A DNA stretch of 64,000 nt from Cytophagaceae bacterium. GTDB taxonomy: Bacteria; Bacteroidota; Bacteroidia; Cytophagales; UBA9547. This document shows positions 21,001 to 30,733 of the stretch, piece by piece. The DNA is taken from positions 2,724 to 66,723 of the forward strand of contig JAIYAU010000058.1 of assembly GCA_027488865.1 (NCBI GenBank). The letters run 5' to 3'. The translations under genes and the position numbers were made by a program. The notes beneath the pieces are model-generated. The model saw only the letters and a list, made by a program, of their open reading frames with translations, did no database searches and was not told the DNA's origin. The first letter of the stretch is position 1; every line of letters begins with the position of its first letter.

Positions 21001-21718
21001 GATAGGCACGTTTAGGGTCTGTAGGTTCGTCGGAATTATCAGAACCAAGTTTACCATGAAAAGAGTTGGTAGAGGCATCCAGTATATTTTGTCCGCTAGG
21101 TTCATCAAAATGGTACAAGGCAATAGTATTAACATCTGAGTTAAAAAAATTGGCGGGTGTAAAATTACTAATGTATCGAGAATTATCAGAAAGACGGAGT
21201 TCATCTATTTGACCTCTAAAATATTCACCTAAGGAGGATGCGCCTATTTTAGCTATCCCTGAATTAGGAGAGGCACCACCTGAACCAGTGACAATAGGAC
21301 CAATTATAATACCGTCAATAAAAAAGTAACAATCCCCAAATTGTCTTACTCCTGCCACATGATGCCAAGCATTGTTCAACAAGCTGGTTCGGGCAAAACT
21401 TTGTGAAACATAAATAGTTCCATTGCGCCAAAATCGGAATTGCGCTGTATTATTGTCTACACCAAAGATTCCAAACTTAATGCCATTAATACCGTCTTCT
21501 TTTGAATAAATACATTGAAATTCATTTGCTCGAAGGCTGTCCATCTTTATCCAAGCCTCTGCAGTAATAGTACCAGTAGGCAAATGCAATTGACCAGATC
21601 CAGATAATTCTACCTTATCATTTACACCATCAAAATATAAACCTTGGTTACCAGCAGGTTGGGCATAAACAACCGTGGCCACCAGTGAAAAGAAAAGGAT
21701 TGTAAATAGTTTTTTCAT
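1..21718 (-). CDS. Giant secreted multidomain adhesin-like protein, partial (C-terminus beyond window edge; at least 7,239 codons). Contains signal peptide, at least 13 LamG/ConA-like lectin domains, 6 right-handed beta-helix segments, Ig/FN3-like domains, IPT/TIG, a 7-blade FG-GAP propeller and a Gly-rich Pmp-like region
   Basis: ATG at 21718-21716 is followed by MKKLFTILFFSLVATVVYA|QPAGNQGLYFDGVND. The same minus frame (first codon base = 1 mod 3) was hand-translated at more than 15 checkpoints and always gave domain-like sequence. Examples: LDEVRIWNVERTAAQI (~17.23 kb), GSLRQAINDAN (~14.64 kb), GDFNGDGKLDL (~10.42 kb), MDEVRIWNRALCQTEI (~7.31 kb), IDEVRIWNTERSPVEI (~0.72 kb), LWVKPEEGTRSVLFGKFNF (nt 58-2). 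The track lists no closed minus-strand ORF in this frame, which fits an ORF running off the window. Confidence 0.85.
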   Translation of the reverse strand, partial: MKKLFTILFFSLVATVVYAQPAGNQGLYFDGVNDKVELSGSGQLHLPTGTITAEAWIKMDSLRANEFQCIYSKEDGINGIKFGIFGVDNNTAQFRFWRNGTIYVSQSFARTSLLNNAWHHVAGVRQFGDCYFFIDGIIIGPIVTGSGGASPNSGIAKIGASSLGEYFRGQIDELRLSDNSRYISNFTPANFFNSDVNTIALYHFDEPSGQNILDASTNSFHGKLGSDNSDEPTDPKRAYRVTNTLEDALAANPPTGSFRNAIKLSNSDLTKSYIDFSIPATDPNYVSGVATITLENKVVITEDSLFIDGYSQFGSKPNTATTTDNSTHTIEISGLLGVDNGIDVGINGRAIFRGLAIYGFSATCFDIASSGNFIKGCKINAKADGTVVNALGNGISIYGINNSIGTNLNADRNLIYANASNGILLTANNNRVVNNFIGLNNDGLSSSLTTFDAVGIYINAANSLVSNNYFAGLDYAIMVKGLSSDNNTFYNNRIGVGTDNTISVPNNNGISLESNRNLVGGIGAGEPNIIAYGYFDGVYVEPTGVQNQIRGNKIYCNVNAGIKLTGAANDNQAPPIILTATTTSITGTAAIGDVVDIYLDGSGCIPEQGTNFVGTTLTDGSGNWTFTGTFNLGDNVTAIATSLSNNSSSFSAAKPVVNAVVIPTTQPAGNQGLYFDGVDDIATFGTIPSTDNLTIEFWLKPMLNNNNSYIISNLPSLGSNGVSLEINNYSTLRVSFGPEIGRQLYDDVPGVIEMNKWVHLALTYDDQGILKVFKDGSLIFTKTGLSGAVNSPNPLILGNIDFGRNVPAKMLVDQLRVFYLTRGDADIASDMLTQGPIGAEAYFEMDEGVGQTLINSGIVGGDGYLGNTIGLNSSDPLHALRVTNTNESGLESFRGVINQANTLAGKNYIDFSIPTSDPNYSAGVWTIQSFIGSPSNVTEEAVIDGYSAFGASVATAAVPANIVIQLDAPVANNTLQLNSVLPTTVRGLSIAQSVSSGLGALWLSGVAGHVIEGNYIGVNAAGTASYPSASSTALVIQGSSNNIIGGASPAQRNIISGALTGIRIDGSTSSNNTILGNYIGVQANGTSPLGNLGEGVLINPFSSGQNNNIGNGLASGANIIAFNGYGIAVTSTGSVNNRFSNNFIFGNISSGILLSNSSNSAITPPDITSASSVLISGTCGNADVVEVYKDSPQSGLTNQGRIFLGTATTTGSSWSFAGAFTVGDRITTTATNVLNNTSEFSAAKVVTPSGPQNFRAYAVKNPSGQNYSILTHWNPMPGAVSYDLFFKQLGPGIFTALTTVDTTYTIPALALNDQPYVFKVVAFDGTTYTPFSDSMVVVPTLESGRAGVFTGSATSYLENQGADLSAITDQLTVEAWFKTSSINNQKFVSLSRLGGGSLPTDFSFVLGSINTTLYHEVFVNNGSIVEQKGFGNATRFKSNEWHHTALTFRSGGLIQIYLDGQMVESMVAPTGVLNVTNVLQLGNGFGWVFSGELDEVRIWNVERTAAQINAAKDKPAVGNEPGLLVLYHLDEPSGSVAFNNSKLANNLTWVGSHNSITSKALYPYTDTLMARGSLDGDSVYLNWTTNIATDIKEFRIYQSQSAVINTAVSPVAVVTNPLATSFGLGGYSTCDTLWFGVVAVDNSGQVGPLFHVDSAVVCPTCNPLIVTTDTDDYPLSGGQCGDLRRAINYANTKPGKDTITFDLQFPGNKIVFLDYSLPAITEGLFIDGRSQPGYIDNTDSNSVATIPQIILNGINKSFDGLTVTHPSGTRGKVTINAISFINFDKGINITNTIDTVTVEGCFIGTADGGLAQGNTVGVVVSSLLSNGIYIGGGSAKDINIISGNVQDGILLSNATRTALIRNFVGVDRTGAAAMPNGVGVTVKSSDFNNIGFGMAGFRNVISGNLGYGLHLMDGDNNTVVNNYIGTSSNGLLSVPNGDQGIWLTPNGGSVDANQIGNKNGTFPNIIANNVGAGIQIDGPAVNSRIFGNTIRSNQAGGIVIKDASSLSNFIYRNSIFDNAIKGISLLTSANNNKAKPVITSASISTISGTCTAGDSIVIYSNAAPYATNTKAQGKTFLGKVFASGTTWSLSGTFTLGDSVTATAVDAARNTSEFSAAQPIIPLVLPTQPVGNRGIYFDGVDDVLNMPTSAALDFAGNSNFTVETWVKVKDLNGYYNIATKQAGGFGQVKFVFTIINDGSINFATDNAASLGWEYGQTPPSLIEPNKWTHLAFVSNGGVKQIFVNGVEQTVTLTGVINSQLSATVSSSPWTFGTAAGGWGGGHFSGQLDEIRIFSAARNSAQIQLDMGSTLPNGAVAYWNFEESNGLTTTSQPIGFDATLSNGILRALRVTDNTDLGTAGLGSLRQAINDANTDADQDYIDFSIQQTVAGIGGVQNININSAILSVINPVFIDGYSAFGSSSNTLNVGNNANLRIQLDFAGLGLNTGLELKGISNSIVQGLSLINKSGVAGEHALGINTASSNITVQGCWFGIAASGTPASNYNNININSSQILVGGSTPASRNVISNAQFNGVVVSGTNNSVVNNYIGTNPNGTSALLNGIAANGPNGGRGIWFETASNGLIQGNVISGGIIPIRFTTNSNNNKIIGNLIGLQPDGVTALGNLREVQVLSGSSNNTFGGINASDANIFANSTTLAILLDGSSTNGNRIVRNSIYDNNGGISLTSGANANKSKPIVTSATPSLVSGTCTAGDSLEVFANTIPYPANTKAQGKTFLGRVFSTGTTWSLPGTFNLGDSITAIAMDASKNTSEFSAARAIIPLVLPTQPLGNRGIYLEGNPTAGSNLVTATAVSNAIDNVTLEAWVKLAKLPTGLAFVAYNGNSSANGYGIYIDPTGNASIFIAGLGGVNFTAPIELNKWTHIAIVKNGNWDLYINGVITPYVPSWPQNSSPVPPTGSLVIGNGFGETNGFPGQLDEVRIFNTARTSAQIQLDMGSTLPNGAVGYWNFEELNGNVATDISGNGNSATFVHTPLRALRVTDNTDVGTAGLGSLRQAVNDANTDADTDYIDFSIQQANLTAVSTINGGANPTITAINPVIIDGYSAYGSSTNTISKGTNAELRVNLTRSGGDVITIASAGSIIKGLAFYTSAGSISNIKLGGTGQHKVLGCFVGTNTLATTVPGINSNVRGITIDAGSNNNQIGDTSLSSRNLISGNEEGMFINGNGTRVYNNYFGTQKDSATVLGNTFSSALIGGNNTLFGGISTREANITTAGVRALYVYPGAINNSFRGNRSYGHAVMTIDLNPNATTANDVIAGSEDNDAGPNNLQNSPEFTTILGMPNGDLSGKVRVRTRTSNAAYPLTIDLYQSDATGNSKNYLGTVNYIGTSALSYIDFNLTPLSKIVAGNTIVAAVTDALGNSSELSAAKVVQVPPIITSFTPTSGIVGTPITINGLNFNPSGPNDVYFGAVKVVGTANPAGTSITVNVPQGASSLAPIIVRNNANGLQVSSNESILGTGTRVFTVTNTPTLTPNYNRTDIGTGLQAYQIETADFNNDGKTDFAYADGANNRVGFYIGNGDGTFVGPTYVTVGNTTRSLAIADFNGDGFQDLAIAREATNNGIDIWLWNGTNNFTLKGNYSVGAILPRDVKVADINKDGLWDVVTANQGMGSNNISILFGDGTGALGTASTNALISSPINLAVGDFNGDGYPDVASSNNVTSTVRLFSGNGTSIFTNLIIKSLLPFGSDPFSTIAADIDADGDQDIITAAVNTNNIVKLKGDGTGNFPNPISADSMYVGGQIYPNALKYGDFNGDGKLDLGFGNYTGNVAGIMLGDGPGNFAKPLNFGVVNAPSSMAIGDFNGDGKTDFITGNSKLSVMLFAALPPVATAATNVTKSSFLGMWKKYPGATSYELSVSTSPTFLTQPTGYPKTGITDTFDVVTGLTANTIYYYRVRAFDGTSYSPVSNTKMTSTILPPGSGNSITLDGVNDYVDLGPGYADFTNGLTMSIWIKPTNNATFARLFDLGNGASQDNIMLFRNAGAPTVGFYMYNGGVLSGQMPAGANSLVLNEWQQIVLTIDPSRTVKIYRNGILRNSTVISAMPINVLRNNCYIGKSSGPDPYLQAGIDEATIWNRALTEAEIQAIMCKKLKGDELGLVYYDRFDENTGAITENKAKRSTTDGVLVGSPTWAISGAPLGDVSTSLYNTGSSVTLLDGDNFTAKGFSLAAEQGIQVYKVNEAPNSILRGAGMDSLQTSRYFGVFPVNITNYKATYDYNVNTKINGRSYEGSASMASRVDNAATIWNSLGGATLAKPLADTMGIPSQTARAEFLAAFVQPGAALDFDGVNDVVNLPPSSGLNFSGTDNFTFEAWVKTDLAGNASIASFRTNGCGGNQTGFSVVAGRPLMYVDATCADIYTVNTTLQTVSPNVWTHLAYLYRNDGSISIYVNGVEQAVTTNGPRSTIWSGLGNIWVLGKVHQIYGGLGVENVPTSLDEVRIWNRAICQVEIQNNIGATRLRNKNGLVTHYSFNQGIAGSINAGLTVLKDSVGTNDGNVSGFNLFGNTSNWIAPGAVKSDSLAPILSQPIIQVRGNKILIANKDFTPTIIDSTDFGLSGGLIKRSFTIYNKGNSILNITNTSFSLGTSFAVLSSPASIAANDSAKVVVRFNPATGSATDTLKIASNDCAIPVFKFLVKGNALGAALDFDGVNDVVSIPHKTELNAFPLTVETWFKAPNDNGGCYYGLVNKYGSNDNNGWSLFRVNGDIAGFYYADVNNYLSFKTTGGTTNDGAWHHAALVVDNSGGRLYIDGVLKISQAWTGSPSPTTSTKDVSLGNYPNDVQTYCTSASNIFKGSMDEVRIWNRALCQTEILNNIGATKLPASSKVGLLAQYSFNQGIANGINTTITAVKDSLGTNDGTISGLALSGTTSNFIAPGAVKSDSLAPVILKPLIQVRGNKTIISHRDFTPSILDSTDFGLSGGLIKRSFTIYNKGNSVLNITNTSFSLGTSFAVLSSPANIAANDSAKVVVRFNPATGSASDTLKIASNDCAIPVFKFLVKGSALGAALDFDGVNDKIISNNLNLVDFGTNPFTVEAWFKTSDTKDQVIFSNRYDASNGNFFNVQINSGTIVLEIDGGSYKNGITSTTYNDGNWHHVAISRDGLKTDLIIDGNLVKSVINTTVANVTRNFGLLIGFRYANGVEVGFFKGQMDEVRVWNRALCQAEIQRYIGATKLPASATGLLSHYSFNQGVAGVDNSGSVLLKDSVSTNDATLFGFNLNGATSNWVYPGAVKSDSLAPIFTQPVIQLRGNRSVIANADFSPALSDSTDIGVSGNLLNASFKIYNKGNSVLNITNTSFSLGTSFSLLSSPTSIAVNDSAKVVVRFNPATGSASDTLKIASNDCAIPVFKFLIKGNALGAALDFDGVDDVVIINKTLGNVGTGDFTIEMKIKTNSNDMYLLSKRSICNNDNLIQMTIEGGTARFAVIEDGLGNNTKEISTTATINNNVWHHLAVTRSGGIVSMYVDGIFQTSDLAIANINNNYNFEIGTSVCVGVNPLSRFKGQMDEFRFWNRALCASEIDNNRNCEKPGNQTGLLARYDFNQGIAGANNVGLSVLKDSVGTNDGTLNGFDLLSATSNFVAGSPIVSGSKCAPLVAGINTINVTTLADAGAGSLRQAIINANLACDSSVINITTAGTITLASSLPAITKSMAIVGNGAIVSGNNLYSVLVVNNAKVNISNLTIADGLAKGGDGGNSIQTGAGGGGGAGLGGGLSVIGTSSIVNLKNVNFNKNKAIGGNGGNTSIWTVGGAGGNGGLGSLSIIAGTPGNGSNSVDPGNPGENGGLFSGGGGAGNPISSGNTKGGDGGLFAGGGGYGIRTDGNANCPSVPGLSGQFGGNGGNSCGGSNSNGGGGGAGLGGALFVYEGNVTIDGVNFVDNYAAGGVGGNNANNGEGKGSAVFVHAGATLVTTGTNTFNGNIALNGLCATTDNKAYYNPNSGAPTIIPAQASYNLKLAAPHTITQASLEWNYCGTESITNYILERSVGDTTNYSVVTSQLSSTFVDNNLTPNRTYFYRVKGQTQYGSSGEYSKLIVSTFKKPGSGTALQFDGVDDYVKFDAFDGNFPNGFTLSLWANPTMSDYARFFDMGNLPSSDLVFFGRNGLSDDLIFQLGNDINGYATLVAPVSIKNGSWNHYAAVYDPANSAFSIYVNGVRVESAELTGALANVKRTSNRIGRSSSVGNVPYKGLMDEPTIWSKALTTAEIQQYMCQKLKGNEPNLLLNFRFDEGIGYGTENSAININNAYLINSPTWVTSGAALGDVSTSIYNAGSSVTLTDGSKFTVKGFNLSSAQNGVQVYKVNEAPNVLAKGLGIDSLQTKEYFGVFPVNVANYNATYEYATNTKINGRPYESSASMGTRPDNTGLVWTSLSGASLANTIADTIGIPSQTARAEFMPAFVQKGAALDFDGVDDNIIIPNGSPAWNLEANFSVEMWINPRVLGSQILTYNNGCNGGCAAWTTYIGTELTCAGDFIGLADRINFSAVQGSGINLSSDLPPVLNTWTHVAVTYDGLDFKMYVNGILQSTIIRKIGVTIPASSNRFIGIEDRCGLKRGPFNGKLDEFRIWNRALCQAELQNNMGAERLRDKTGLTAQYSFNQGMAGGANGTITTLVDSVVNGIDGTLVGFSLNGNSSNWIAPGAVKIDSLSPILPLPSLELRGNQTVVLANDLVANGNDSTDFGAVYSPASRIFKITNKGAAPLVVNTIIQTNSKHFTASFAPPGPVAANDSIDLIVTFKGDTIGLQLDTLSIVSNDCNNPIYRFAVQATGLQPQKPCATAGNGSVTLTWPAISGVTKYTVVYDIDSNSTTPQAIDIAAPNITITGLTNNSTYYFRVSADGGIMSKAVAVVPVVESGKAVRLNGQYIYNDKFAQNGITNELTVEAWFKTGTLANQKIVSLSDVRIPSSNFYFVLGTNSDGSIYNEIWESDGTPHQFAGETFYKLNQWHHLAITYKAGGTYKHYLDGQEVKSIPVGNNPVRINPTNNYLNVGGGFGFLFDGEIDEVRIWNTERSPVEINQNKDVPLTGSEAGLVLLYHLDEPSGNVAYDATCNGNNGSIVGSAVAVNSKALHPFKPTGLATTGSAITWDPNIATDVASYTILKKSGATYDSVGTILPNSAYTILPACTTQVYKVYAIDNAGQKGAVSDSIVVLPSSSLNNGLVAYYPFDGDSKDLITNIDGVITGGVTSTFDRKGTPNGAYQFNGTDGFIDTKQDISWPSTQSFTYALWVKPEEGTRSVLFGKFNF
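3960..4660 (-). repeat. Gly-rich low-complexity region with GGA(L/I)-type and FxxN-type motifs (polymorphic-membrane-protein-like repeats) inside the giant ORF
   Basis: Translation gives QTGAGGGGGAGLGGGLSVI (~4600) and NGGGGGAGLGGALFVYEGNVTIDGVNFVD (~4100). The region is preceded by ADAGAGSLRQAIINAN (~4870). The Pro-rich plus-strand ORF 4311..4619 in the track is its antisense shadow. Confidence 0.6.
5400..8850 (-). repeat. Three to four tandem coding repeats of about 1.06-1.09 kb; each unit is a LamG-like domain plus an ASH/choice-of-anchor-D-like Ig domain
   Basis: The string ccccatcaaaatcca recurs at 5611, 6667, 7753 and 8833. After the first three copies, the next ~300 nt are about 90% identical. 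Translation of 7741-8160 gives FGLSGGLIKRSFTIYNKGNSILNITNTSFSLGTSFAVLSSPASIAANDSAKVVVRFNPATGSATDTLKIASNDCAIPVFKFLVKG. The LamG halves (MDEVRIWNRAL at ~7310, ~6245, ~8390) are much more diverged. Confidence 0.8.
10240..11580 (-). other. IPT/TIG domain followed by seven FG-GAP/VCBS repeats (integrin-alpha-like 7-blade propeller) inside the giant ORF
   Basis: Translation gives PPIITSFTPTSGIVGTPITINGLNF (IPT-like, ~11.56 kb). Seven Ca-binding-type motifs follow at about 155-nt spacing: ADFNNDGKTDF, ADFNGDGFQDL, ADINKDGLWDV, GDFNGDGYPDV, ADIDADGDQDI, GDFNGDGKLDL, GDFNGDGKTDF. Confidence 0.7.
11950..21660 (-). repeat. Five-fold coding super-module (about 1.9-2.3 kb each): LamG-like domain, then parallel beta-helix, then Ig-like domain
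   Basis: Module junctions read TQP(A/V/L)GN(Q/R)G(L/I)Y(F/L)(D/E)G at ~21660, 19725, 15340 and 13370. Helix openers of type GSLRxAIxxAN occur at ~20940 (GSFRNAIKLSN, read less carefully than the others), ~19050, ~16680 (GDLRRAINYAN), ~14640 (GSLRQAINDAN) and ~12700 (GSLRQAVNDAN). Modules at 15.3 and 13.4 kb are about 75-85% identical by eye at nucleotide level. Confidence 0.7.
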
Positions 21719-22148
21719 AGGAAAATCGTCTATGGCTAGTATTTTATATGTATGTTATTCCAAGAAAACCTCTTGAAATTAATATTAATAGTGTTAATAA
21801 GAATCAAACTAATATCGGAAATACAGCTGGAAAATGGTGTAAAGCCACCTAACCAAATTGTACGAAGTTTTATAAAAGTTATATGTAGTGACTTAATAAA
21901 AGCACTAAAACTTTGAAATAACAAAATCAAGACAAAAAGAGGATGTCTCATAGCTAATTAGAAGTAAATAAGAAAATTGTAAAGTACATTTCTCTTACTT
22001 ACAAAGATATATACTAAAATTGAGAAAATTGTCACCAAGCATAATAAAGTTTGTTCAATAAGAGGAAGTTAGTTGTGAAAAGAGAATGGTTCGTCTGAAT
22101 CACAGATTTACATAGATGTCACGGATTAGATGTGCATGGTGAATGGTT

Positions 22149-22180
22149 GTCTGAACTATGATTTTTTTGATTTAGGTGAT
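22149..22180. repeat. 32-nt sequence identical to 30501-30532; the two copies bracket the tandem paralog pair
   Basis: gtctgaactatgatttttttgatttaggtgat is present at both coordinates. A degenerate partial copy (gtctgaatcacagattt) lies at ~22093. Confidence 0.8.
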
Positions 22181-22189
22181 TGACAGGAT

Positions 22190-22259
22190 GGATAATGGGA
22201 TAATTGATAATTGATAATTGTCAATTATCAACTTTCAATTATCAATTATCAATTATTCC
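22190..22259. repeat. AT-rich heptamer-based imperfect palindrome directly downstream of the stop of gene 22265..26113; possible terminator hairpin
   Basis: ggataat-gggataat-tgataat-tgataat-tg | tcaatta-tcaactt-tcaatta-tcaatta-tcaatta. The arms are largely complementary. Confidence 0.6.
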
Positions 22260-24290
22260 TTAACTTACTCTACCACTACCTTATGCACTTTGCTGCTGTA
22301 GGGGTTGGATACTTTTACGAAGTATACACCTTTCTCCAAGTTGCTTAGGTCGATGCTGCCGTTGCTGGTGCCTGACTGTTGTAACTGGCCTGTCGCAGTG
22401 TGTATCTCGATGTTTGCTGTGCCTTGCAGGCCTTGGATGTAGATGGTCTTGGTAGCTGGATTGGGATATAGTGATAAGCTTCCTGTCTCTAAATCCTGAA
22501 CTCCTGTTACTGCTTCGCTCTCTTCTACTCTTAAGCTACTTACTTCTCCGTTTACCACAGCTACAAAGCTATTGAAATCGTCTTTGGTGATAGCCGTTCC
22601 GCTGTTCTTGGCCAAGTAGATGTAGGCAATTGGTTCTTTGGTTTCTACAAGGTCCTTTAATACGTACGTAGTGGCCATCAAACGCTGTGCGGATGGCACA
22701 TTGTTGCTCATGCTGGCCATTTTATGACTGATCGGCTGTGCGATATCGTAACCTGTTACGTTGAACTTGCTTCTGTCATAGTCCCAAGCGAAGTCGATAC
22801 CTGCACTTGGTCCGTTGCTCTCGTAAGAAACTGGGATGGCCACGTATTGGTCGTTTGCTGAAATGTCTTTCAAAGACAATACCAACACATTAGAAGGTTT
22901 TTCTGTACGCAAGGTAGTTCCGTTGGTGGCAAGCCATGAGCTGTTTACATCTCCTAGAAGGATGGCATGGTAAGTTTGATCCACTGTAGTAGTTCCACAG
23001 GTGCTCAAGTCTGCTGATACAGGAAGGTAAGCAGGCACTGCTGGAACTTTAAACCTAGTGGCTGTGGTAAATGGTGTGGTAGTCAACAAGGTTGCGTCAA
23101 CAAACAACCAGTCTTTTGACTTGGCATAAGGTACTTTGGCACTTAGGATGCCGTTTGCATCTGCTTCGTAGTTCCAAGACTGTGGGAACTCGCAATTGTA
23201 TTGGTTTAAGCCACGGGAAGAGATAAGTGCAGCATCACCAGAAGTTACTCTGCCATCTAGGTTCACATCTGCTGCCAATAATTGGAAGATGGTTGGGGCT
23301 GTCACGACGCCGTTGGCGATTTGTGCGGCGGTGGTTCTGTCTGCGGCATTGATGACTGTGGTAATGTTGGCACAGCTGGCAAAGGCTACACTGGCATCGC
23401 CCAAGACATCACGGCTGAGAGTGAGGGACTTCAAAGTGGCATCTGGTACGGTAAAAAGGCCATTGGCATCCAGTGAAGGGCTTGCCAATGCTGTTCCTGT
23501 GGCATCGGTCGTGCTATAAGGGGTGATGGTGGTTGGGTTTTGCCCAGTTACACCGCTAATCTTTTTGGTAGCTGTCTCTCTGTATTGTATTTGACCATTA
23601 AAAGCTCTAGTAAAGTTGAAGGCACCTGGCACTACTGGACAAACCACATTGGAAGTAAACAGCTTGCTCTCGATCAGGTCAGAGGTGCTGAAGCTAGAGA
23701 GGGCTTGGTTGGGAGCTACACCTGTGTTGATCCTGAAATTGACATTGATTACCACTCCATCACCACTGAAGAAAGTGTTTGCAGGAGCACCATTAAGGTA
23801 CAAGCCAACGCCTACCTTACCAGGAGTACTGCTGTTGAGGTCGAAAGTAGCAAAGGTGGTAGCTACTGGGCCTACTGTTGCGGTGCCTGTTGGTGTTACC
23901 TTGGTGTCATCGTATAACAGGTCAAAATCAAGAGCGATGAGACCTGAAGCGATATTGCCTACTGTTTTTACTGGAACACTAAATGTGCCAGCTGGGGTAC
24001 AAAGGACGGTTTGTGGATCTATTTTGTATTTAGAGGTCTCTACTGTGCCTGTGCCTGAGGTAGTGCCTGTTACTGTTAAAGTACCACAACGGATGATTTT
24101 TCCGTTGTTTATTAGGTTACCAGAAACTGCTAGTGTAGTGCCTGAGGCAATCGTTAGTGTTTGCCCTGCATTGATGGTGAGGTCTTTGGCAGTTAAGATA
24201 CCGTTGTCTAAGGTGCTGTAGTTGCCGTTGATAATGGCATCGGTGGCAGCGTCTGGGGCTGAAGGTGACCAGGTGGTGCCGTTCCATGTG
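22255..24290 (-). repeat. About 2.0-kb block roughly 95% identical (by eye) to 26442-28477; this is the 3' coding half of paralog A
   Basis: Direct comparison of the two stretches at an offset of 4187 nt. The encoded C-terminal ~675 aa differ at only a handful of positions. Confidence 0.8.
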
Positions 24291-26113
24291 GAGGGGGTAG
24301 TATATAACAAAATGGTACCAAATATCCCTACTGCCCGGCCTAATGTACTGGAGGTAAAGTTAACGGAATATATTATTTGTGTTGTGCCCGAGTTTTGAAC
24401 CGTCCAAGTCGCTCCACCATTGCTTGTTGTCAAGATGATTCCACCCCCCCCTACTGCCCAGCCTTGTGTAGCGGAGGTAAAGTATACAGAAAACAATAGC
24501 TCTGTTGTTCCAGCGCTCTGTGCTGTCCAAGTGATACCGCCATTGCTTGTAGTCAAAATAGTACCACTTAGTCCTACTGCCCAACCTTGGGTAGCGGAAG
24601 CAAAGTATGAATCGCGTAATGAGAGGGAGGTGCCGGAGGTTTGAGCCGTCCAAGTGATACCACCATTGCTCGTGGTCAAGATCGTACCTCCATCGCCAAC
24701 AATCCAGCCTTGCAAAGCGGAGGTGAAGTAAACAGATCGCAATGCTCGTGTGGTACCAAAGATTTGGGCCGTCCAAGTGGTACCGCCGTTGTTCGTAGTT
24801 AAGATAGTACCACCAGTCCCAACTGCCCAACCTTGTCTATCGGAGGTAAAGTACACAGAATACAAAAGTTCTGTAGTACCAGACGTTTGGACTGACCAAG
24901 TTACGCCGCCGTTGCTTGTAGCCAAGATCGTACCACCTTCCCCTACCACCCAACCTTGTGTCGCGGAAGTAAAGTAAACGGAAGTTAATGTTCGTATCGA
25001 ACCAACGGGTTGAGCGATCCAAGTGTTACCACCATCGGTCGTAGTAAATATCCCACCACCAGTTCCAATTTGCCCTACTGCCCAGCCTTGCGTAGCGGAT
25101 GTAAAGAAAACTGACTGTAGTGCCTGTGCGGTATTTAATATTTGGGCTGACCACGTTGTACCGCCATTGTTCGTAGTCAAGATTGTACCACTTCCTCCTA
25201 TTGCCCAGCCTTGCAAAGCGGAGGTAAAGTATACGGAATTTAAAATTTGAGTCGTACCCGAGGTCTGGGCAGTCCATGTGCCACCACTATTGCTTGTAGT
25301 CAGGATGGTACCATTACTCCCTACAGCCCAGCCTTGGGTAGTAGATGTAAAGTATATTGAATATAATGATTGCGTTGTACCAGAGGATTGAACTGTCCAC
25401 GTTATACCACCATTATTGGTAGATAAGATTGTACCATTTTCACCTACTGACCAACCTTGTGTAGCGGAGGTAAAATAAACGGACCTTAATACTTGTGTAG
25501 TACTAGAAATCTGGGCGGTCCATGTATTACCTCCATCGTTTGTAGTCAAGATTGTACCACCAGCCCCTACTGCATAGCCTTGTGTAGAAGAGATAAAGAA
25601 AACGGATAATAACGACTGTGTTGTACCTGAAGTCTGGGGTGTCCATGTCGTTCCTCCGTTGCTCGTTGTTAAGATTGTACCACCGACCCCTACTACCCAA
25701 CCTTGCGTTGCGGAGGTAAAATAAACGGAGCTTAATACTTGTATAGTACCAGAGATCTGGGAGGTCCACATATTTCCGCCACTGCTCGTGGTCAAGATTG
25801 TACCAGCATTCCCTACTATCCAGCCTTGCGTTGCAGAAGTAAAGTAAACGGAATTTAATGTTTCCGTTGTACCAGAGGTCCTAGCAGTCCACCTGGTTCC
25901 TCCATTGATTGTTGTCAAAATTGTACCGCCATCACCTACTGCCCAACCTTGGGTAACAGAGGTAAAAAAGGTACCCCTCATATCGCCAACAGCGCTAGAA
26001 GCACCAAATTCAACTGATTTCCATGTTTGGGAATAGGCTGCTATGCTCGTAATAAAGAGCAGGATTGCCCCCAGAATGGTGCTACTGAACTTTGAGAAGA
26101 TTATCTTTTTCAA
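22265..26113 (-). CDS. T9SS-secreted surface protein, paralog A: signal peptide, 14 Asp-box/Ycf48(BNR)-like propeller blades, cohesin-like domain, dockerin-like Ca-binding segment, second cohesin-like domain, Por C-terminal sorting domain
   Basis: 1282-aa ORF. Fourteen repeats of about 41 aa match SVYFTSATQGWAVGxxGTILTTxNGGxTWTxQxSGTTxxL. Further motifs: IALDFDLLYDDTKVTP, LLAADVNLDGRVTSGDAALI, GIDFAWDYDRSKFNVTG. C-terminus reads LSLYPNPATKTIYI...GVYFVKV...KVVVE. The start codon at the position homologous to the paralog B ATG is TTG. Confidence 0.8.
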   Translation of the reverse strand: MKKIIFSKFSSTILGAILLFITSIAAYSQTWKSVEFGASSAVGDMRGTFFTSVTQGWAVGDGGTILTTINGGTRWTARTSGTTETLNSVYFTSATQGWIVGNAGTILTTSSGGNMWTSQISGTIQVLSSVYFTSATQGWVVGVGGTILTTSNGGTTWTPQTSGTTQSLLSVFFISSTQGYAVGAGGTILTTNDGGNTWTAQISSTTQVLRSVYFTSATQGWSVGENGTILSTNNGGITWTVQSSGTTQSLYSIYFTSTTQGWAVGSNGTILTTSNSGGTWTAQTSGTTQILNSVYFTSALQGWAIGGSGTILTTNNGGTTWSAQILNTAQALQSVFFTSATQGWAVGQIGTGGGIFTTTDGGNTWIAQPVGSIRTLTSVYFTSATQGWVVGEGGTILATSNGGVTWSVQTSGTTELLYSVYFTSDRQGWAVGTGGTILTTNNGGTTWTAQIFGTTRALRSVYFTSALQGWIVGDGGTILTTSNGGITWTAQTSGTSLSLRDSYFASATQGWAVGLSGTILTTSNGGITWTAQSAGTTELLFSVYFTSATQGWAVGGGGIILTTSNGGATWTVQNSGTTQIIYSVNFTSSTLGRAVGIFGTILLYTTPSTWNGTTWSPSAPDAATDAIINGNYSTLDNGILTAKDLTINAGQTLTIASGTTLAVSGNLINNGKIIRCGTLTVTGTTSGTGTVETSKYKIDPQTVLCTPAGTFSVPVKTVGNIASGLIALDFDLLYDDTKVTPTGTATVGPVATTFATFDLNSSTPGKVGVGLYLNGAPANTFFSGDGVVINVNFRINTGVAPNQALSSFSTSDLIESKLFTSNVVCPVVPGAFNFTRAFNGQIQYRETATKKISGVTGQNPTTITPYSTTDATGTALASPSLDANGLFTVPDATLKSLTLSRDVLGDASVAFASCANITTVINAADRTTAAQIANGVVTAPTIFQLLAADVNLDGRVTSGDAALISSRGLNQYNCEFPQSWNYEADANGILSAKVPYAKSKDWLFVDATLLTTTPFTTATRFKVPAVPAYLPVSADLSTCGTTTVDQTYHAILLGDVNSSWLATNGTTLRTEKPSNVLVLSLKDISANDQYVAIPVSYESNGPSAGIDFAWDYDRSKFNVTGYDIAQPISHKMASMSNNVPSAQRLMATTYVLKDLVETKEPIAYIYLAKNSGTAITKDDFNSFVAVVNGEVSSLRVEESEAVTGVQDLETGSLSLYPNPATKTIYIQGLQGTANIEIHTATGQLQQSGTSNGSIDLSNLEKGVYFVKVSNPYSSKVHKVVVE
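24300..26000 (-). repeat. About 123-nt periodic coding repeat (14 propeller blades) in paralog A
   Basis: The blade consensus recurs every ~41 aa. It generates the many overlapping shadow ORFs listed in the track between 24.3 and 25.8 kb. Confidence 0.8.
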
Positions 26114-26188
26114 TAGATTAGGAAGAAATGAGTTAATCGAAATAATTAGGTTTTAGCTTAAATGATTTCTACTGCTGATAGAACCTAC

Positions 26189-26196
26189 CAAAATTA
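26189..26196 (-). promoter_or_regulatory. Candidate Bacteroidota -7 box (TAATTTTG on minus strand) for paralog A
   Basis: Matches TAnnTTTG and lies 76 nt upstream of the start codon. Paralog B has TAGTTTTG at the same 76-nt distance. No clear -33 TTG was seen. Confidence 0.35.
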
Positions 26197-26255
26197 AAGA
26201 AAAGTAGGATAATATTGGTCATGGGAAAGGGATTATTTTTACAGAAATTGAAAAG

Positions 26256-26388
26256 AGAATGATGAATTGATAATGGAGAATTGAGAATGGAGAATTGAGA
26301 ATGACGAATGATGAATTGATAATGGAGAATGGATAATTTTCAACTATCAATTGTTAATTTTCAATTATCAATTATCAACTATCAATTG
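26256..26388. repeat. About 12 tandem heptamers (K-G-A-K-A-A-T) followed by a block of roughly complementary ATTATCA-type heptamers; long imperfect palindrome between the two paralogs
   Basis: gagaat gatgaat tgataat ggagaat tgagaat ggagaat tgagaat gacgaat gatgaat tgataat ggagaat ggataat | ttcaactatcaattgttaattttcaattatcaattatcaactatcaattg. Confidence 0.7.
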
Positions 26389-26391
26389 TAT

Positions 26392-26428
26392 AAATCCCCA
26401 AAAGCCATTATCTGACCATTGGGGATTT
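26392..26428 (-). terminator. Hairpin AAATCCCCAA-loop-TTGGGGATTT downstream of the paralog B stop
   Basis: Perfect 10-bp arms at 26392-26401 and 26419-26428, 24 nt after the stop at 26452. The U-tail on the minus strand is weak. Confidence 0.5.
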
Positions 26429-26441
26429 TACTTTAAACCTT

Positions 26442-28477
26442 ATTCCTTAACTTACTCTACCACTACTTTGTGCACTTTGCTGCTGTAGGGGTTGGATACT
26501 TTCACGAAGTATACGCCTTTCTCCAAGTTGCTTAGGTCGATGCTGCCGTTGCTGGTACCTGACTGCTGTAACTGGCCTGTCGCAGTGTGTATCTCGATGT
26601 TTGCTGTGCCTTGCAAGCCTTGGATGTAGATGGTCTTAGAAGCTGGGTTAGGATATAGTGATAGGCTTCCTGTTTCTAAATCTTGAACTCCTGTTACTGC
26701 TTCGCTCTCTTCTACTCTTAAGCTACTTACCTCTCCGTTTACTACAGCTAATAAGCTATTGAAATCGTCTTTGGTGATAGCCGTTCCGCTGTTCTTGGCC
26801 AAGTAGATGTAGGCAATTGGTTCTTTGGTTTCTACGAGGTCTTTTAATACGTACGTAGTGGCCATCAATCGTTGTGCGGATGGTACATTGTTGCTCAAGC
26901 TGGCCATTTTATTACTGATCGGCTGTGCGATGTCGTAACCTGTTACGTTGAACTTGCTTCTGTCATAGTCCCAAGCGAAGTCGATACCTGCACTTGGTCC
27001 GTTGCTCTCATAAGAAACTGGGATGGCCACGTATTGGTCGTTTGCTGAAATGTCTTTTAAGGACAATACCAACACATTAGAAGGTTTTTCTGTACGCAAG
27101 GTGGCTCCGTTGGTAGCAAGCCATGAGCTGTTTACATCTCCCAACAAAACGGCATGGTAAGTTTGATCCACTGTAGTAGTTCCGCAGGTGCTCAAGTCTG
27201 CTGATACAGGAAGGTAAGCAGGAACTGCTGGAACTTTAAATCTAGTAGCCGTGGTAAATGGTGTGGTGGCCAACAATGTTGCGTCTACAAACAACCAGTC
27301 TTTTGACTTGGCATAAGGTACTTTGGCACTTAGGATGCCGTTTGCATCTGCTTCGTAGTTCCATGATTGTGGGAACTCGCAGTTGTATTGGTTTAAGCCA
27401 CGGGAAGAGATAAGTGCAGCATCTCCAGATGTTACTCTGCCATCGAGGTTCACGTCTGCTGCCAACAATTGGAAGATGGTCGGAGCAGTCACGACGCCGT
27501 TGGCGATTTGTGCAGCGGTCGTTCTGTCTGCGGCATTTATCACTGTGGTGATGTTGGCACAACTGGCAAAGGCCACGCTGGCATCACCCAATACATCACG
27601 GCTGAAGGTGAGGGACTTCAAAGTAGCATCTGGAACGGTAAACAGGCCATTGGCATCTAGTGAAGGGCTTGTCAATGCTATTCCTGTCGCATCGGTCGTG
27701 CTATAAGGGGTAATGGTGGTTGGGTTTTGCCCAGTTACACCGCTGATCTTCTTTGTAGCTGTTTCTCTGTATTGTATTTGACCATTAAAGGCTCTGGTAA
27801 AGTTGAAGGCACCTGGCACTACAGGGCAAACGACATTGGAAGTAAACAGTTTACTCTCGATCAGGTCTGAGGTGCTGAAGCTAGAAAGGGCTTGGTTGGG
27901 TGCTACACCTGTGTTGATTCTGAAATTGACATTGATTACCACTCCATCACCGCTGAAGAAGGTGTTAGCTGGAGCACCATTAAGGTACAAGCCAATACCT
28001 ACTTTGCCAGGCGTGCTGCTGTTAAGATCGAAAGTAGCAAAGGTGGTAGCTACTGGACCTACTGTGGCGGTGCCTGTTGGTGTTACCTTGGTGTCATCAT
28101 ACAATAGGTCAAAATCAAGAGCGATCAAGCCTGAGGAGATGTTGCCTACTGTTTTTACAGGAACGCTAAAGGTACCTGCTGGGGTACAAAGGACGGTTTG
28201 TGGATCTATTTTGTATTTAGAGGTCTCTACTGTGCCTGTGCCTGAGGTGGTGCCTGTTACTGTCAAAGTGCCACAACGGATGATTTTTCCGTTGTTTATC
28301 AAGTTGCCAGAGACAGCTAGTGTTGTGCCAGAAGCAATCGTTAGTGTTTGACCGGCATTGATGGTGAGGTCTTTGGCAGTAAAGATGCCGTTTTCTAGGG
28401 TACTATAATTGCCGTTGATGATTGCATTGGTAGTGGCATCTGGGGCTGAAGGGCTCCAGGTGGTGCCGTTCCAGGTG
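26442..28477 (-). repeat. About 2.0-kb block roughly 95% identical to 22255-24290; this is the 3' coding half of paralog B
   Basis: Same comparison as for 22255-24290. Identity drops sharply upstream of ~28480 at the propeller boundary. Confidence 0.8.
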
Positions 28478-30324
28478 GAGGGGGGTGGCGGGGCGTCATA
28501 CAACAAGATGGTGCCAATATCACCTACTGCCCAACTTCGAGTAGGAGATGTAGAGTAAACGGAATACAAGTTTCGGGTTGTGCCTGAATTTTGAACTGTC
28601 CAAGTGGTACCGCCATTGCTTGTAGTCAAGATCGTACCACTACCCCCTACTGCCCATCCTTGGGTAAAAGAGGTGAAGTAAACGGATAATAAAACTTGTG
28701 ACGTAAGGGATGTTTGGGCCGTCCATGTGGTTCCTCCATTGCTTGTAGTCAAGATCGTACCACTATTACCTACTACCCAACCTTGCGTAGCAGAGATGAA
28801 GTAAACAGACCTTAGTATTTGTGTCGTTCCTGATGTTTGGGCTGTCCAAGTTGCACCTCCGTTGTTTGTAGATAAGATTGTACCACCAACACCCGCCGCC
28901 CAGCCTTGGGTGGCGGAAGTAAAATAAACGGAATTTAAATTATTTGTCGTGCCCGAGGTTTGGGCGGTCCAGGTAATACCGCCATTGCTTGTTGTCAAGA
29001 TTGTACCTCCATCTCCGACCGCCCAGCCTTTTGTAGAGGAGGTAAGGTAAACTGAAGCTAATCTTTGAGTCGTACCAGAAATCTGAGTGTTCCATGTTAC
29101 ACCGCCATTGGTTGTTGTCAAAATAGTACCCCCATTCCCCACAACCCAACCTTGGGTAGCGGAAGTAAAATTAACAGAATTTAAGTGTTGCGTCGTGCCA
29201 GATATCTGGGGAGTCCACACAGTACCTCCATTGCTTGTTACCAAGATAGTGCCAGCACTCCCTACTACCCAACCTTGAGTAGCGGAGGTAAAATAAACCG
29301 ATAATAAAAACTGTGATGAACCAAAGAGCTGGGCCGTCCATGTGGCACCAGCATTACTAGTAGTCAAAGTGATACCACCATCCCCAACTGCCCAGCCTTG
29401 TGTGGGGGAGGTAAAGTAAACGGAATATAGAATCTGTTTGGTGCCCGAGGTTTGGGAAGTCCAAGTGGCACCGCCATTGTTTGTGGTCAAAATGGTACCA
29501 TCACCCCCTACTGCCCAGCCTTGTGAAGCACTAGTAAATTTAATGGAATATAATCCGAGTGTTGCAGCCGAGGTCTGGACTGACCAAGTGGCACCACCAT
29601 TATTCGTAGTTAAGATTTCATTACCAAGTGATACCGCCCATCCTTGTGTAGCGGAGTTAAAGTATACGGAGCTTAGTTCTTGATACGTACCAGAAGTTTG
29701 GGCAGTCCAAGTAGTACCACTATTGCTAGTTGTTAAGATAGTTCCACCCTGTCCAACAGCCCATCCTTGCGTAGCAGAAGTAAAGTAAACAGAAGATAAG
29801 TTTTGTGTCGTACCCGAAGTTTGTGCTGTCCAAGTAGCACCACCATTGATAGTAGTCAAAATTGCACTAAACTTACCCAACATCCAGTCGCCATCCCCAA
29901 CTACCCAGCCCTGTGTAGCAGAGGTAAAGTAAACGGAGGATAACGTTTGAGTCGTACCAGAGGCTTGAGCCGTCCACGTGATACCACCATTGCTCGTAGT
30001 CCTGATAATACCATTAACCCCAACTGCCCAGCCTTGCGTAGAAGAGGTAAAAAAAACGGAATTTAATGTTTGATTTGTACCAGAGGTTTGAGCTGTCCAC
30101 GTGATACCACCATTGTTCGTAGTCCTGATAATACCATTAACCCCAACCGCCCAACCTTGCGAAGGTGAGATAAAAAAGGTTTCCCTCATGCTTTGATTAT
30201 TATAATTGCCGCCTAATTCGAGGGGTGTTTTCCACGTTTGAGCATTGGCTCCCATGCTGGTAATGAAAAGCAAGGCCATCCCGAGAATAGCGCTGCTGAG
30301 TTTTGAGAAAATTGTCTTTTTCAT
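26452..30324 (-). CDS. T9SS-secreted surface protein, paralog B, with the same architecture as paralog A
   Basis: 1290-aa ORF with an ATG start and signal peptide MKKTIFSKLSSAILGMALLFITSMGANA. It has 14 blades, cohesin-like/dockerin-like motifs identical to paralog A, and the same Por CTD. Confidence 0.85.
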   Translation of the reverse strand: MKKTIFSKLSSAILGMALLFITSMGANAQTWKTPLELGGNYNNQSMRETFFISPSQGWAVGVNGIIRTTNNGGITWTAQTSGTNQTLNSVFFTSSTQGWAVGVNGIIRTTSNGGITWTAQASGTTQTLSSVYFTSATQGWVVGDGDWMLGKFSAILTTINGGATWTAQTSGTTQNLSSVYFTSATQGWAVGQGGTILTTSNSGTTWTAQTSGTYQELSSVYFNSATQGWAVSLGNEILTTNNGGATWSVQTSAATLGLYSIKFTSASQGWAVGGDGTILTTNNGGATWTSQTSGTKQILYSVYFTSPTQGWAVGDGGITLTTSNAGATWTAQLFGSSQFLLSVYFTSATQGWVVGSAGTILVTSNGGTVWTPQISGTTQHLNSVNFTSATQGWVVGNGGTILTTTNGGVTWNTQISGTTQRLASVYLTSSTKGWAVGDGGTILTTSNGGITWTAQTSGTTNNLNSVYFTSATQGWAAGVGGTILSTNNGGATWTAQTSGTTQILRSVYFISATQGWVVGNSGTILTTSNGGTTWTAQTSLTSQVLLSVYFTSFTQGWAVGGSGTILTTSNGGTTWTVQNSGTTRNLYSVYSTSPTRSWAVGDIGTILLYDAPPPPSTWNGTTWSPSAPDATTNAIINGNYSTLENGIFTAKDLTINAGQTLTIASGTTLAVSGNLINNGKIIRCGTLTVTGTTSGTGTVETSKYKIDPQTVLCTPAGTFSVPVKTVGNISSGLIALDFDLLYDDTKVTPTGTATVGPVATTFATFDLNSSTPGKVGIGLYLNGAPANTFFSGDGVVINVNFRINTGVAPNQALSSFSTSDLIESKLFTSNVVCPVVPGAFNFTRAFNGQIQYRETATKKISGVTGQNPTTITPYSTTDATGIALTSPSLDANGLFTVPDATLKSLTFSRDVLGDASVAFASCANITTVINAADRTTAAQIANGVVTAPTIFQLLAADVNLDGRVTSGDAALISSRGLNQYNCEFPQSWNYEADANGILSAKVPYAKSKDWLFVDATLLATTPFTTATRFKVPAVPAYLPVSADLSTCGTTTVDQTYHAVLLGDVNSSWLATNGATLRTEKPSNVLVLSLKDISANDQYVAIPVSYESNGPSAGIDFAWDYDRSKFNVTGYDIAQPISNKMASLSNNVPSAQRLMATTYVLKDLVETKEPIAYIYLAKNSGTAITKDDFNSLLAVVNGEVSSLRVEESEAVTGVQDLETGSLSLYPNPASKTIYIQGLQGTANIEIHTATGQLQQSGTSNGSIDLSNLEKGVYFVKVSNPYSSKVHKVVVE
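28490..30190 (-). repeat. About 123-nt periodic coding repeat (14 propeller blades) in paralog B
   Basis: The blade consensus recurs every ~41 aa. Confidence 0.8.
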
Positions 30325-30407: not shown

Positions 30408-30500
30408 AAGAAATTAGGATAATCTTGGTAATGGAAAAGGGATTATTTTTGTAGAAATTGAAAAGTTATAATTGCGTGTTGGATAAGTGCAATATTTTTT

Positions 30501-30621
30501 GTCTGAACTATGATTTTTTTGATTTAGGTGATGGATTTGATGTTGATGACTAAGTGAAAAGGTGATTTGTAAATGTGAAATGAGAATCATGGTCATCAAT
30601 CATGCGAATCATAGTTCAGAC
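30501..30621. repeat. 121-bp element bounded by perfect 15-bp terminal inverted repeats (MITE-like or REP-like hairpin); its left end is the 32-nt repeat shared with 22149-22180
   Basis: gtctgaactatgatt (30501-30515) pairs with aatcatagttcagac (30607-30621). The interior is made of tgatt/aatca-type short repeats. Confidence 0.6.
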
Positions 30622-30661
30622 AATTTGAATACTCGGTCTGACCCTAGGGGGTACCGACTGG

Positions 30662-30708
30662 TACAAAAAACAAAATCCCCAAAGGCCATTTACTGACCTT
30701 GGGGATTT
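30662..30708 (-). terminator. Rho-independent terminator of the 189-aa gene
   Basis: Arms AAATCCCCAA (30673-30682) and TTGGGGATTT (30699-30708). On the minus strand the hairpin is followed by TTTTGTTTTTTG. Confidence 0.75.
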
Positions 30709-30733
30709 ACGTTAAACTTTGAACCTTGACCTG

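Follow-up and report, generated by a model that had tools for sequence, protein, structure and literature searches.

A cohesin–X–dockerin-like–cohesin module in front of the type IX sorting signal of two tandem double-propeller proteins from a Cytophagaceae bacterium

What does a secreted protein do with both a cohesin and a dockerin-like element on one and the same chain? The question is raised by two tandem genes in a 64,000-nucleotide stretch of DNA from a Cytophagaceae bacterium (assembly GCA_027488865.1, contig JAIYAU010000058.1, positions 2,724 to 66,723; hereafter the window), the upstream gene U and the downstream gene D, each of which encodes a head of two β-propellers followed by cohesin- and dockerin-like parts and by the C-terminal sorting domain (CTD) used by type IX secretion systems (T9SS). 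The pairing of cohesins with dockerins is the textbook mechanism of the cellulosomes of Gram-positive anaerobes and a common protein-engineering tool, and an earlier note on this DNA, made from the sequence alone, saw in the two proteins a candidate surface scaffold that assembles itself head to tail or reciprocally. U and D are most aptly regarded as new members, two in number, of a family of T9SS cargo proteins of the Bacteroidota that has so far no annotation, in which the head is followed by a conserved module, a proposed pedestal, made up, in this order, of a cohesin, a segment in the position of an X module, a dockerin-like domain and a further cohesin-like domain (Coh-X-Doc-like-Coh).

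A conserved block directly before the sorting domain

In both proteins the parts follow one another in the same order, namely a signal peptide, 14 propeller blades, a pre-module segment, the Coh-X-Doc-like-Coh module and the T9SS CTD, as seen with Pfam, NCBIfam and models. The block of approximately 516 residues that consists of a cohesin, a β linker, a dockerin-like domain and a second cohesin-like domain is a conserved unit situated directly before the sorting domain. With residues 690–1205 of D as the query (516 residues without the sorting domain, the D residue number being the module position plus 689), a word-indexed search showed the whole block to be common to 13 proteins of 23–34% identity with unrelated N-termini, and an exhaustive search of 1.84 billion representatives returned 281 module clusters at E ≤ 1e-3, 213 at E ≤ 1e-10 and 55 at E ≤ 1e-30. 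Among 147 full-length matches the four parts of the module are constant in order and spacing, the distance from the end of the module to the C-terminus has a median of 88 residues (mostly 77–101), and the N-terminal part ahead of the module ranges from 0 to 2641 residues. Por_Secre_tail was matched in 44 of 45 members, Cohesin in 30 (best E 7.4e-21) and Dockerin_1 at E ≤ 1e-3 in 11 (best E 2.3e-7); the heads of these 45 members comprise PKD_6, Ig_7, SBBP, NHL, SGL, Big_7, RCC1, FG-GAP, LRR, SprB repeats and PSII_BNR, and are mostly nonenzymatic binding domains. The idea that the combination is peculiar to this pair therefore has to be given up, since the same module is found before the CTD and behind many unrelated heads across the Bacteroidota.

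A scan of genomes, whose sample did not contain the species of the window itself and whose best match was 40% identical, gave 55 loci, all of them in metagenome-assembled genomes (MAGs) of Bacteroidota belonging to the Cytophagales, the Flavobacteriales (including Crocinitomicaceae), the Chitinophagales and the Saprospiraceae. The closest relatives, L001 and L003, have two tandem module genes each, and ligA, which lies near the pair in the window, also adjoins the module genes of L001. Homologues of both cellulosome parts are in this way fused in a fixed order directly before a T9SS signal and combined with interchangeable heads in at least 213 Bacteroidota clusters; this module of the surface proteins of Gram-negative bacteria has no annotation and has apparently not been studied. 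Whichever way the module acts, the public annotations of the family describe the heads alone (“hypothetical”, “6-bladed beta-propeller”, “RCC1 domain-containing”), and nothing relevant to the module, or to Ycf48 together with T9SS, was found in the searchable literature.

A subfamily made up of the helical domain and cohesin 2 only, considered on the basis of tblastn matches to module positions 196–516 (L048–L051), was rejected, as the L050 protein carries cohesin 1 together with an insertion. At L050, in a Flavobacteriia MAG, the module gene is directly followed by a gene for a 408-residue protein (7235..8461, plus strand), which by eye has a cohesin-2-like N-terminus (…IDIPVLL…FDFWFQFN…), then PKD-like sequence and a CTD-like tail, and which may be a stand-alone cohesin-like partner.

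The first cohesin of the module is genuine, as had been supposed: PF00963 is matched with 30.1 bits in D and 29.3 in U against a cut-off of 24.1, the solved cohesin 5nrk_A is matched over 136 residues with an E value of 5.3e-7, and AlphaFold2 (AF2) and Foldseek indicate the nine-stranded β jelly-roll of cohesins, modelled with a predicted local distance difference test (pLDDT) score of ~80–89 at module residues 21–110. Nearly all Foldseek matches of the module model are cohesins, with 5nrm_A and 5nrk_A at a probability of 1.0, a TM-score normalized to the target (TMt) of 0.66–0.67 and a root-mean-square deviation (rmsd) of ~3 Å, the output not stating which domain of the query was aligned. The segment that follows (module 141–215) ends in a conserved RDI.G motif and is modelled with low confidence by AF2; a third cohesin at this place was rejected, as hhalign gave a probability below 1% against either cohesin domain.

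The dockerin-like call of the earlier note stands in part. In a search of the PDB with a profile of the helical domain (22 sequences), dockerins or dockerin-bearing enzymes made up at least 14 of the 18 matches listed (best E 4.4e-5), the alignment being limited to profile positions 34–72 (P..YQ.IAADVNLDG.VSA.D..LI..R), where the one repeat fits both repeats of solved dockerins. The calcium ligands in DVNLDGRVTSGD are D1, N3, D5 and D12 of the loop, and across 22 diverse members no variation occurs at D45, V46, N47, D56 and R63 of the helical-domain alignment, the Arg belonging to the helix that leaves the loop; in the AF2 model a helix at module 269–280 trails the calcium loop. While a dockerin-type calcium loop and helix are thus present, a canonical dockerin is not: Dockerin_1 (PF00404) stays below threshold in both U and D (18.1 vs 22.9 bits, covering only positions 31–53 of the 57 of the model), and instead of two tandem F-hand repeats of ~22 residues in a three-helix module of ~70 residues there is one full repeat embedded in a domain of 160 residues. 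A degenerate second loop (consensus giLLGDvnGnw, LLGDVNSSW in D) comes ~85–90 residues after the first repeat and has no helix behind it in the AF2 model; β hairpins and an invariant SKDW.F motif lie between the two loops. The second cohesin-like domain appears to be a remote cohesin homologue by profile–profile comparison, hhalign giving 95.2% against the cohesin 1 profile (E 2.9e-8, 84 columns), and 8 of its 10 listed PDB profile matches are cohesins, although these matches are weak (best E 0.011) and there is no Pfam match. Of the HMMER comparisons that the earlier note had proposed, PF14870 is matched, PF00963 and TIGR04183 score above their cut-offs and PF00404 below; the note had named a lack of cohesin or dockerin model matches, together with the lack of a predicted interface, as something that would speak against its proposal, and PF00963 does pass its cut-off.

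Comparison of the paralogues shows how strongly this part of the protein is constrained. Between U and D the module has a synonymous divergence (dS) of 0.31, a nonsynonymous divergence (dN) of 0.012 and a dN/dS of 0.04, with the protein being ~98% identical, and the propellers have a dS of 1.18, a dN of 0.23 and a dN/dS of 0.20. Because a dS of 0.31 stands against a dN of 0.012, the near-identity of the module is kept by purifying selection and not merely by very recent copying. Gene conversion as the whole cause of the near-identical C-terminal halves is ruled out by the same values and by the third-codon positions, which differ by 7–30% there while the protein is 97–100% identical. The propeller dS of 1.18 as compared with 0.31 in the module suggests, on the other hand, either that the C-terminal half became homogenized at some time later than the duplication itself, possibly by an older conversion, or that a shuffling of blades has exaggerated how far the propellers have diverged. 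It is unlikely that a module so constrained is a passive spacer.

The head consists of 41-residue repeats in strict register, exactly 14 per protein, with a matching 123-nucleotide period detected by Tandem Repeats Finder (TRF), and the proposal that they form two seven-bladed propellers of the Ycf48 type has been borne out. PSII_BNR (PF14870) is matched with 219 and 195 bits; the best solved relatives in a PDB sequence search are Ycf48 structures (E 1.6e-22, seven blades per alignment), with designed consensus propellers matching too; and the AF2 model of D residues 30–625, made from 23 sequences, reaches a pLDDT of 90.3. Its predicted TM-score (pTM) of 0.66 leaves the relative orientation of the two propellers uncertain, with a dip in confidence at the junction of blades 7 and 8 (in D the boundary lies near residue 331). 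Foldseek matches of this model include double propellers, among them the repetitive 2ymu (TM-score 0.68–0.70), as well as Ycf48 (TMt 0.77). The head is not a Ycf48 orthologue, since the cut-off of the NCBIfam equivalog NF010237 is 326 bits and the two proteins score 209 and 200. The blades had also been described as unusually close to a single consensus, which holds with regard to the mean blade-to-blade identity of 66–67% within each of U and D as compared with a median of 49% in homologues, but not with regard to the homologue maximum of 76% (15 of 120 homologues passing a simple repeat-spacing filter). Blades of U and D at equal positions are 69% identical and those at different positions 67%. 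“YCF48-related” double propellers of this kind are very frequent as heads of secreted proteins: of 8000 candidates that were scored, 6674 matched, and many of these have a T9SS tail or some other anchor; the full module was found in none of the top 120 propeller homologues, with partial matches only in P0235.

Cis packing, intermolecular binding and other readings of the module

From what is known of the families concerned, U and D would be exported by Sec, and the T9SS would recognize their type A CTD, following which the protein would either be set free or become fixed to the outside of the outer membrane. The N-terminal propeller pair would be the working end, most likely a ligand-binding head, and the module would fold as a single compact unit stabilized by calcium and disulfide bonds, in which the dockerin-derived helix and loop would pack in cis against the neighboring cohesin-type sandwiches, so that the module may be likened to the Coh-X-Doc end of a scaffoldin that has been joined to the cohesin anchoring it. 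It would serve as a rigid, protease-resistant pedestal showing interchangeable heads at the cell surface. We would give such a compact display pedestal, packed in cis, about an even chance; if true, it would explain the presentation of many T9SS cargo proteins and offer a ready-made display scaffold.

The cis unit is favored because of the pTM of the module, the near-invariant and co-occurring cysteines across its subdomains, and the fixed order and spacing of its parts. AF2 gave the module a pTM of 0.76 over 516 residues at a mean pLDDT of 68, as compared with the lower pTM of the rigid double propeller at a pLDDT of 90, and freely hinged domains of 140–160 residues could not yield so high a value. 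Among the 147 members, cysteine columns co-occur within subdomains (23/101 with a phi of 0.94, 42/122 with 0.93 and 225/285 with 0.86), and C184 of the middle segment is never present without C340 of the helical domain; C16 of cohesin 1 is present in 99% and C350/351 of the helical domain in 96%, both together in 143 of the 147. These patterns suggest disulfide staples between the subdomains.

Several points weigh against packing in cis. The AF2 model of the module was built on an alignment of only 14 sequences, with pLDDT values that fall below 50 in the middle segment and in several loops. The pairing of C16 with C350 is a guess, because near-invariant cysteines cannot display covariation, and the contact between the dockerin-like helix and a cohesin would be one that we infer from the pTM and the cysteine patterns. 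Judging from characterized systems, single-repeat dockerins can bind cohesins, and a cohesin can recognize a dockerin between molecules even where the two share a chain; very strong purifying selection would be equally expected if the module bound a partner in trans. As to export, the window yielded no core T9SS gene, the search being confined to the neighbors of the pair; it does hold other CTD-bearing proteins, and all relatives are Bacteroidota.

The assembly foreseen by the earlier note would have the dockerin-like element bind, putatively, cohesin 1 or 2 of another module-bearing molecule, with U and D or other module-bearing cargo proteins as partners and chains or a mixed-head lattice on the outer membrane as the outcome. 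The two halves are genuinely homologous to cohesin and dockerin, there are two cohesin-type domains for each dockerin-type element, so that one cohesin could stay free, the module genes occur in tandem here as well as in L001 and L003, and the near-identity of the U and D modules despite a dS of 0.31 fits a shared binding specificity; precedents exist in Amy4, which recognizes its own dockerin (PMC4611034), and in single-loop dockerins that bind a cohesin (PMC12270676). On the other hand, an engagement of the elements in cis is already suggested by the pTM and by the cysteine pattern, the dockerin-like repeat lies buried within a domain of 160 residues and lacks the second helix, which is half of the canonical binding face, Dockerin_1 stays below threshold in both proteins, and a constant order and spacing in 147 members is typical of a single fold unit rather than of independent binding modules. 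Self-assembly in trans is possible, being neither supported nor refuted by any computation made here, and we consider it rather unlikely; if true, abundant bacteria of fresh water and soil would possess a cell-surface assembly system of a new kind. In a wider version, to which we would attach a similarly low probability, the block would serve environmental Bacteroidota in general as an assembly device linked to the T9SS, in which the dockerin-derived element and cohesin 2 would engage in cis beside the membrane anchor while cohesin 1 would stay free and capture the single-repeat dockerin face of a neighboring cargo. Proteins with propeller, Ig-array, LRR and RCC1 heads would in this way be linked in daisy chains and form a mixed layer on the surface, a noncellulosomal Gram-negative counterpart of scaffoldin-based assembly.

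A different use of the same domains would be that of a glycan or cell-surface anchor, with the cohesin-type sandwiches acting, together with calcium, in the manner of carbohydrate-binding modules (CBMs) on lipopolysaccharide, capsule or environmental polysaccharide, and with the dockerin-like loop as a structural calcium site alone. CBM-type sandwiches (3ndy_E, 6qfs_B) are indeed present among the Foldseek cohesin matches, the module always adjoins the CTD and thus the membrane-proximal end, many heads are binding domains and not enzymes, and the calcium ligands are invariant; the sequence matches, however, are specific to cohesins and not to CBM families, and neither an aromatic platform nor a known sugar-binding motif was found, which makes this an unlikely, slightly less probable reading than binding in trans. 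Some GH74 enzymes are cellulosomal, and U and D could in principle be enzymes of this kind, the GH74-like head being recruited through the cohesin and dockerin parts to a separate scaffoldin in a true cellulosome-like complex. For the head, Foldseek ranks GH74 xyloglucanases first, enzymes that likewise have two seven-bladed propellers (E 2e-17), yet the identity is 13–16%, the TM-score normalized to the query (TMq) ~0.54 and the rmsd ~9 Å, and the PDB sequence search with the head, which found Ycf48 and designed propellers, gave no GH74 chain at E ≤ 1e-3. Moreover, blades of 41 residues leave almost no loops for a catalytic cleft, the heads of the family are mostly nonenzymatic, and the window contains no cellulosome-type system, that is, neither a scaffoldin nor separate dockerin-bearing enzymes. 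An enzymatic role of this type is thus very improbable.

The gene pair and its surroundings

Both open reading frames (ORFs) were found on the minus strand where the earlier note had placed them, arranged in tandem and head to tail with an overall protein identity of 83%, and all the motifs quoted in it are present in the translations (Table 1). The Por sorting domain was recovered as well, with PF18962 and TIGR04183 above their cut-offs at the extreme C-terminus of both proteins, where it begins ~10 residues after cohesin-like domain 2. The predicted Sec signal peptides, read by eye, start with MKK..., continue with a hydrophobic core and end in ...AYSQ or ANAQ ahead of TW. That of D requires the TTG start and is homologous to the N-terminus of U by alignment. 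The public copy of D (P0017, 1238 residues, module 100% identical) begins with Met45 and lacks the signal peptide; because the TTG start, 44 codons upstream of Met45, restores a signal peptide like that of U, the deposited gene model is probably 5′-truncated, the stretch absent from it being 25982..26113.

Table 1. Positions of the two paralogues, their parts and neighboring features in the window
Feature	Position	Strand	Basis
Gene U, upstream paralogue, 1290 aa, ATG start	26452..30324	-	ORF list; Pfam and NCBIfam
U signal peptide, residues 1–29	30238..30324	-	read from sequence
U double seven-bladed propeller, residues 46–613, 14 blades	28486..30189	-	blade register, Pfam, U/D alignment
U cohesin 1, residues 698–837	27814..28233	-	PF00963 29.3 bits; 98–100% identical to D
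U helical calcium-loop domain, residues 913–1075	27100..27588	-	Dockerin_1 18.1 bits at residues 951–973; U/D alignment
U cohesin-like domain 2, residues 1076–1213	26686..27099	-	tblastn of module; U/D alignment
U T9SS type A sorting domain, residues 1223–1290	26455..26658	-	PF18962 50.7 bits vs 27; TIGR04183 48.7 vs 23
Strong hairpin ~20 nt past U stop, probable terminator	26386..26431	-	RNA fold -22.4 kcal/mol, z -4.3
Gene D, downstream paralogue, 1282 aa, TTG start	22265..26113	-	ORF list; Pfam and NCBIfam
D signal peptide, residues 1–29, MKKIIFSKFSSTILGAILLFITSIAAYSQ, Gln beside predicted cleavage site	26027..26113	-	read from sequence; aligned to U N-terminus
D double seven-bladed propeller, residues 45–605, 14 Asp-box blades of 41 aa	24299..25981	-	blade register, PDB, AF2, Foldseek
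D pre-module segment, residues 606–689, WNGTTWSP...GTLTVTG, Gly/Thr-rich	24047..24298	-	no Pfam match; 90–98% U/D identity
D cohesin 1, residues 690–829, module 1–140	23627..24046	-	PF00963, PDB, Foldseek
D middle β segment, residues 830–904, module 141–215, X-module position	23402..23626	-	family consensus, AF2
D helical calcium-loop domain, residues 905–1067, module 216–378, holds dockerin-like repeat	22913..23401	-	AF2 secondary structure; PDB profile
D dockerin-like F-hand repeat, residues 940–969, PTIFQLLAADVNLDGRVTSGDAALISSRGL	23207..23296	-	Dockerin_1, invariant columns, solved-dockerin alignment
D degenerate second calcium-loop motif, residues 1051–1060, ILLGDVNSSW	22934..22963	-	family consensus, AF2
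D cohesin-like domain 2, residues 1068–1205, module 379–516	22499..22912	-	hhalign, PDB profile
D T9SS type A C-terminal sorting domain, residues 1215–1282	22268..22471	-	PF18962 47.1 bits vs 27; TIGR04183 51 vs 23
AT-rich palindrome of AATTATC heptamers directly past D stop	22200..22262	-	TRF; fold -22.7 kcal/mol, z -7.3
Giant ORF, start 21718, >7239 aa, off left window end, directly downstream of D	1..21718	-	domain content
WYL/WCX-domain regulator, divergent, upstream of pair	31756..32748	+	
Two further proteins with T9SS CTD	33221..34879 and 43885..45504	+ and -	

Comparison of U with D shows that the duplicated DNA unit extends from ~140 bp upstream of each start codon to ~12 bp beyond each stop. 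A simple terminator scan gave the hairpin of neither gene, and direct RNA folding revealed both; as strong hairpins stand past both stop codons, U and D are probably separate transcription units. Tandem heptamers (AATTATC and GAGAATT) were detected by TRF just past the D and U stops, at 22216..22256, 26255..26338 and 26335..26387, the repeat after D folding as a perfect AT-rich palindrome; these may be terminators or a remnant of the duplication junction. A near-identical hairpin, AAAUCCCCAA...UUGGGGAUUU, is present at 26386..26431 and at 30676..30713 on the minus strand, with about -22 to -23 kcal/mol, the second copy trailing an unrelated 189-residue ORF upstream of U, and looks like a repeated terminator or a repetitive extragenic palindromic (REP)-like element. 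At both outer flanks of the duplication, at ~22150..22190 and ~30490..30640, stands a short sequence (CACCTAAATCAAAAAAATCATAGTTCAGAC and, as a partial inverted copy of it, GTCTGAACTATGAT), which may be a small repeat flanking the duplicated block. At 22000..30000 the G+C content of U and D is 44–47%, clearly above the 31–40% of their surroundings, which is probably due to a composition rich in Gly, Thr and Ala and not to a foreign origin.

The surroundings of the pair are ordinary chromosomal ones, with pgk, fusA and ligA. The giant ORF directly downstream of D, with ~13 Laminin_G_3 (LamG_3) domains, FG-GAP repeats, a right-handed β-helix, HYDIN-type Ig, DUF1573 and fn3, is a giant surface protein whose C-terminus lies beyond the window. 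No cohesin or dockerin was found in it or in the other neighbors in the window, and tblastn found no copies of the module in the window other than those of U and D. The two further proteins with a T9SS CTD are a 552-residue protein without any other Pfam match and an S8 subtilase.

Relation to known systems

The fixed Coh-X-Doc-like-Coh block itself was not found in the searchable literature, and the comparison has to be made with systems that share parts of it. The photosystem II assembly factor Ycf48/HCF136 (2xbg, 5ojp), the best match of the head both by sequence and as a single-domain structure, has a seven-bladed Asp-box propeller like U and D, which differ in having two propellers in tandem, in being secreted and in belonging to a nonphototroph lineage. 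Cohesins and dockerins outside cellulosomes are also known from noncellulosomal proteins of Archaeoglobus fulgidus (2xdh, which appears in the Foldseek search and in the PDB profile search with cohesin 2), and a scaffoldin-like protein of Candidatus Stygibacter is reported to combine cohesins with a T9SS CTD (PMC8542988); in contrast to U and D, these have canonical modules that are separate, or else cohesins in tandem, to which dockerin-bearing enzymes would be recruited.

With regard to the dockerin-like element, the group-2 truncated dockerins of Ruminococcus flavefaciens (8ajy) likewise have a single calcium-coordinating loop, and 8ajy_B is among the PDB profile matches of the helical domain (E 0.029). 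These dockerins are short and free-standing and bind the ScaE cohesin (PMC12270676), whereas the repeat of U and D is embedded amid extra helices and β hairpins. The statement of the earlier note that no characterized system has both halves of the pair on one chain was too strong, as shown by the amylosome protein Amy4 of Ruminococcus bromii, a secreted protein whose cohesin binds its own dockerin, permitting multimers (PMC4611034). Amy4 differs from U and D in having a canonical C-terminal dockerin of two repeats, one cohesin and an amylase domain and in belonging to a Firmicute that has no T9SS; its self-recognition has been demonstrated, while U and D are known from sequence and models alone.

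The order of the module recurs in the Coh-X-DocII end of CipA from Clostridium thermocellum together with its anchoring type II cohesin (4fl4, 3kcp), constructs of which (4fl4_I, 3kcp_A) are among the top Foldseek matches of the module model. In both cases a cohesin, a small β module and dockerin-type calcium-binding helices follow one another, and the next element toward the cell surface is a cohesin. In U and D, however, a single chain carries all of these parts, the “anchoring” cohesin among them, the dockerin is reduced to one full repeat inside a 160-residue domain, the module recruits no enzymes, and the anchor is the T9SS CTD of a Gram-negative member of the Bacteroidota in place of an SLH domain.

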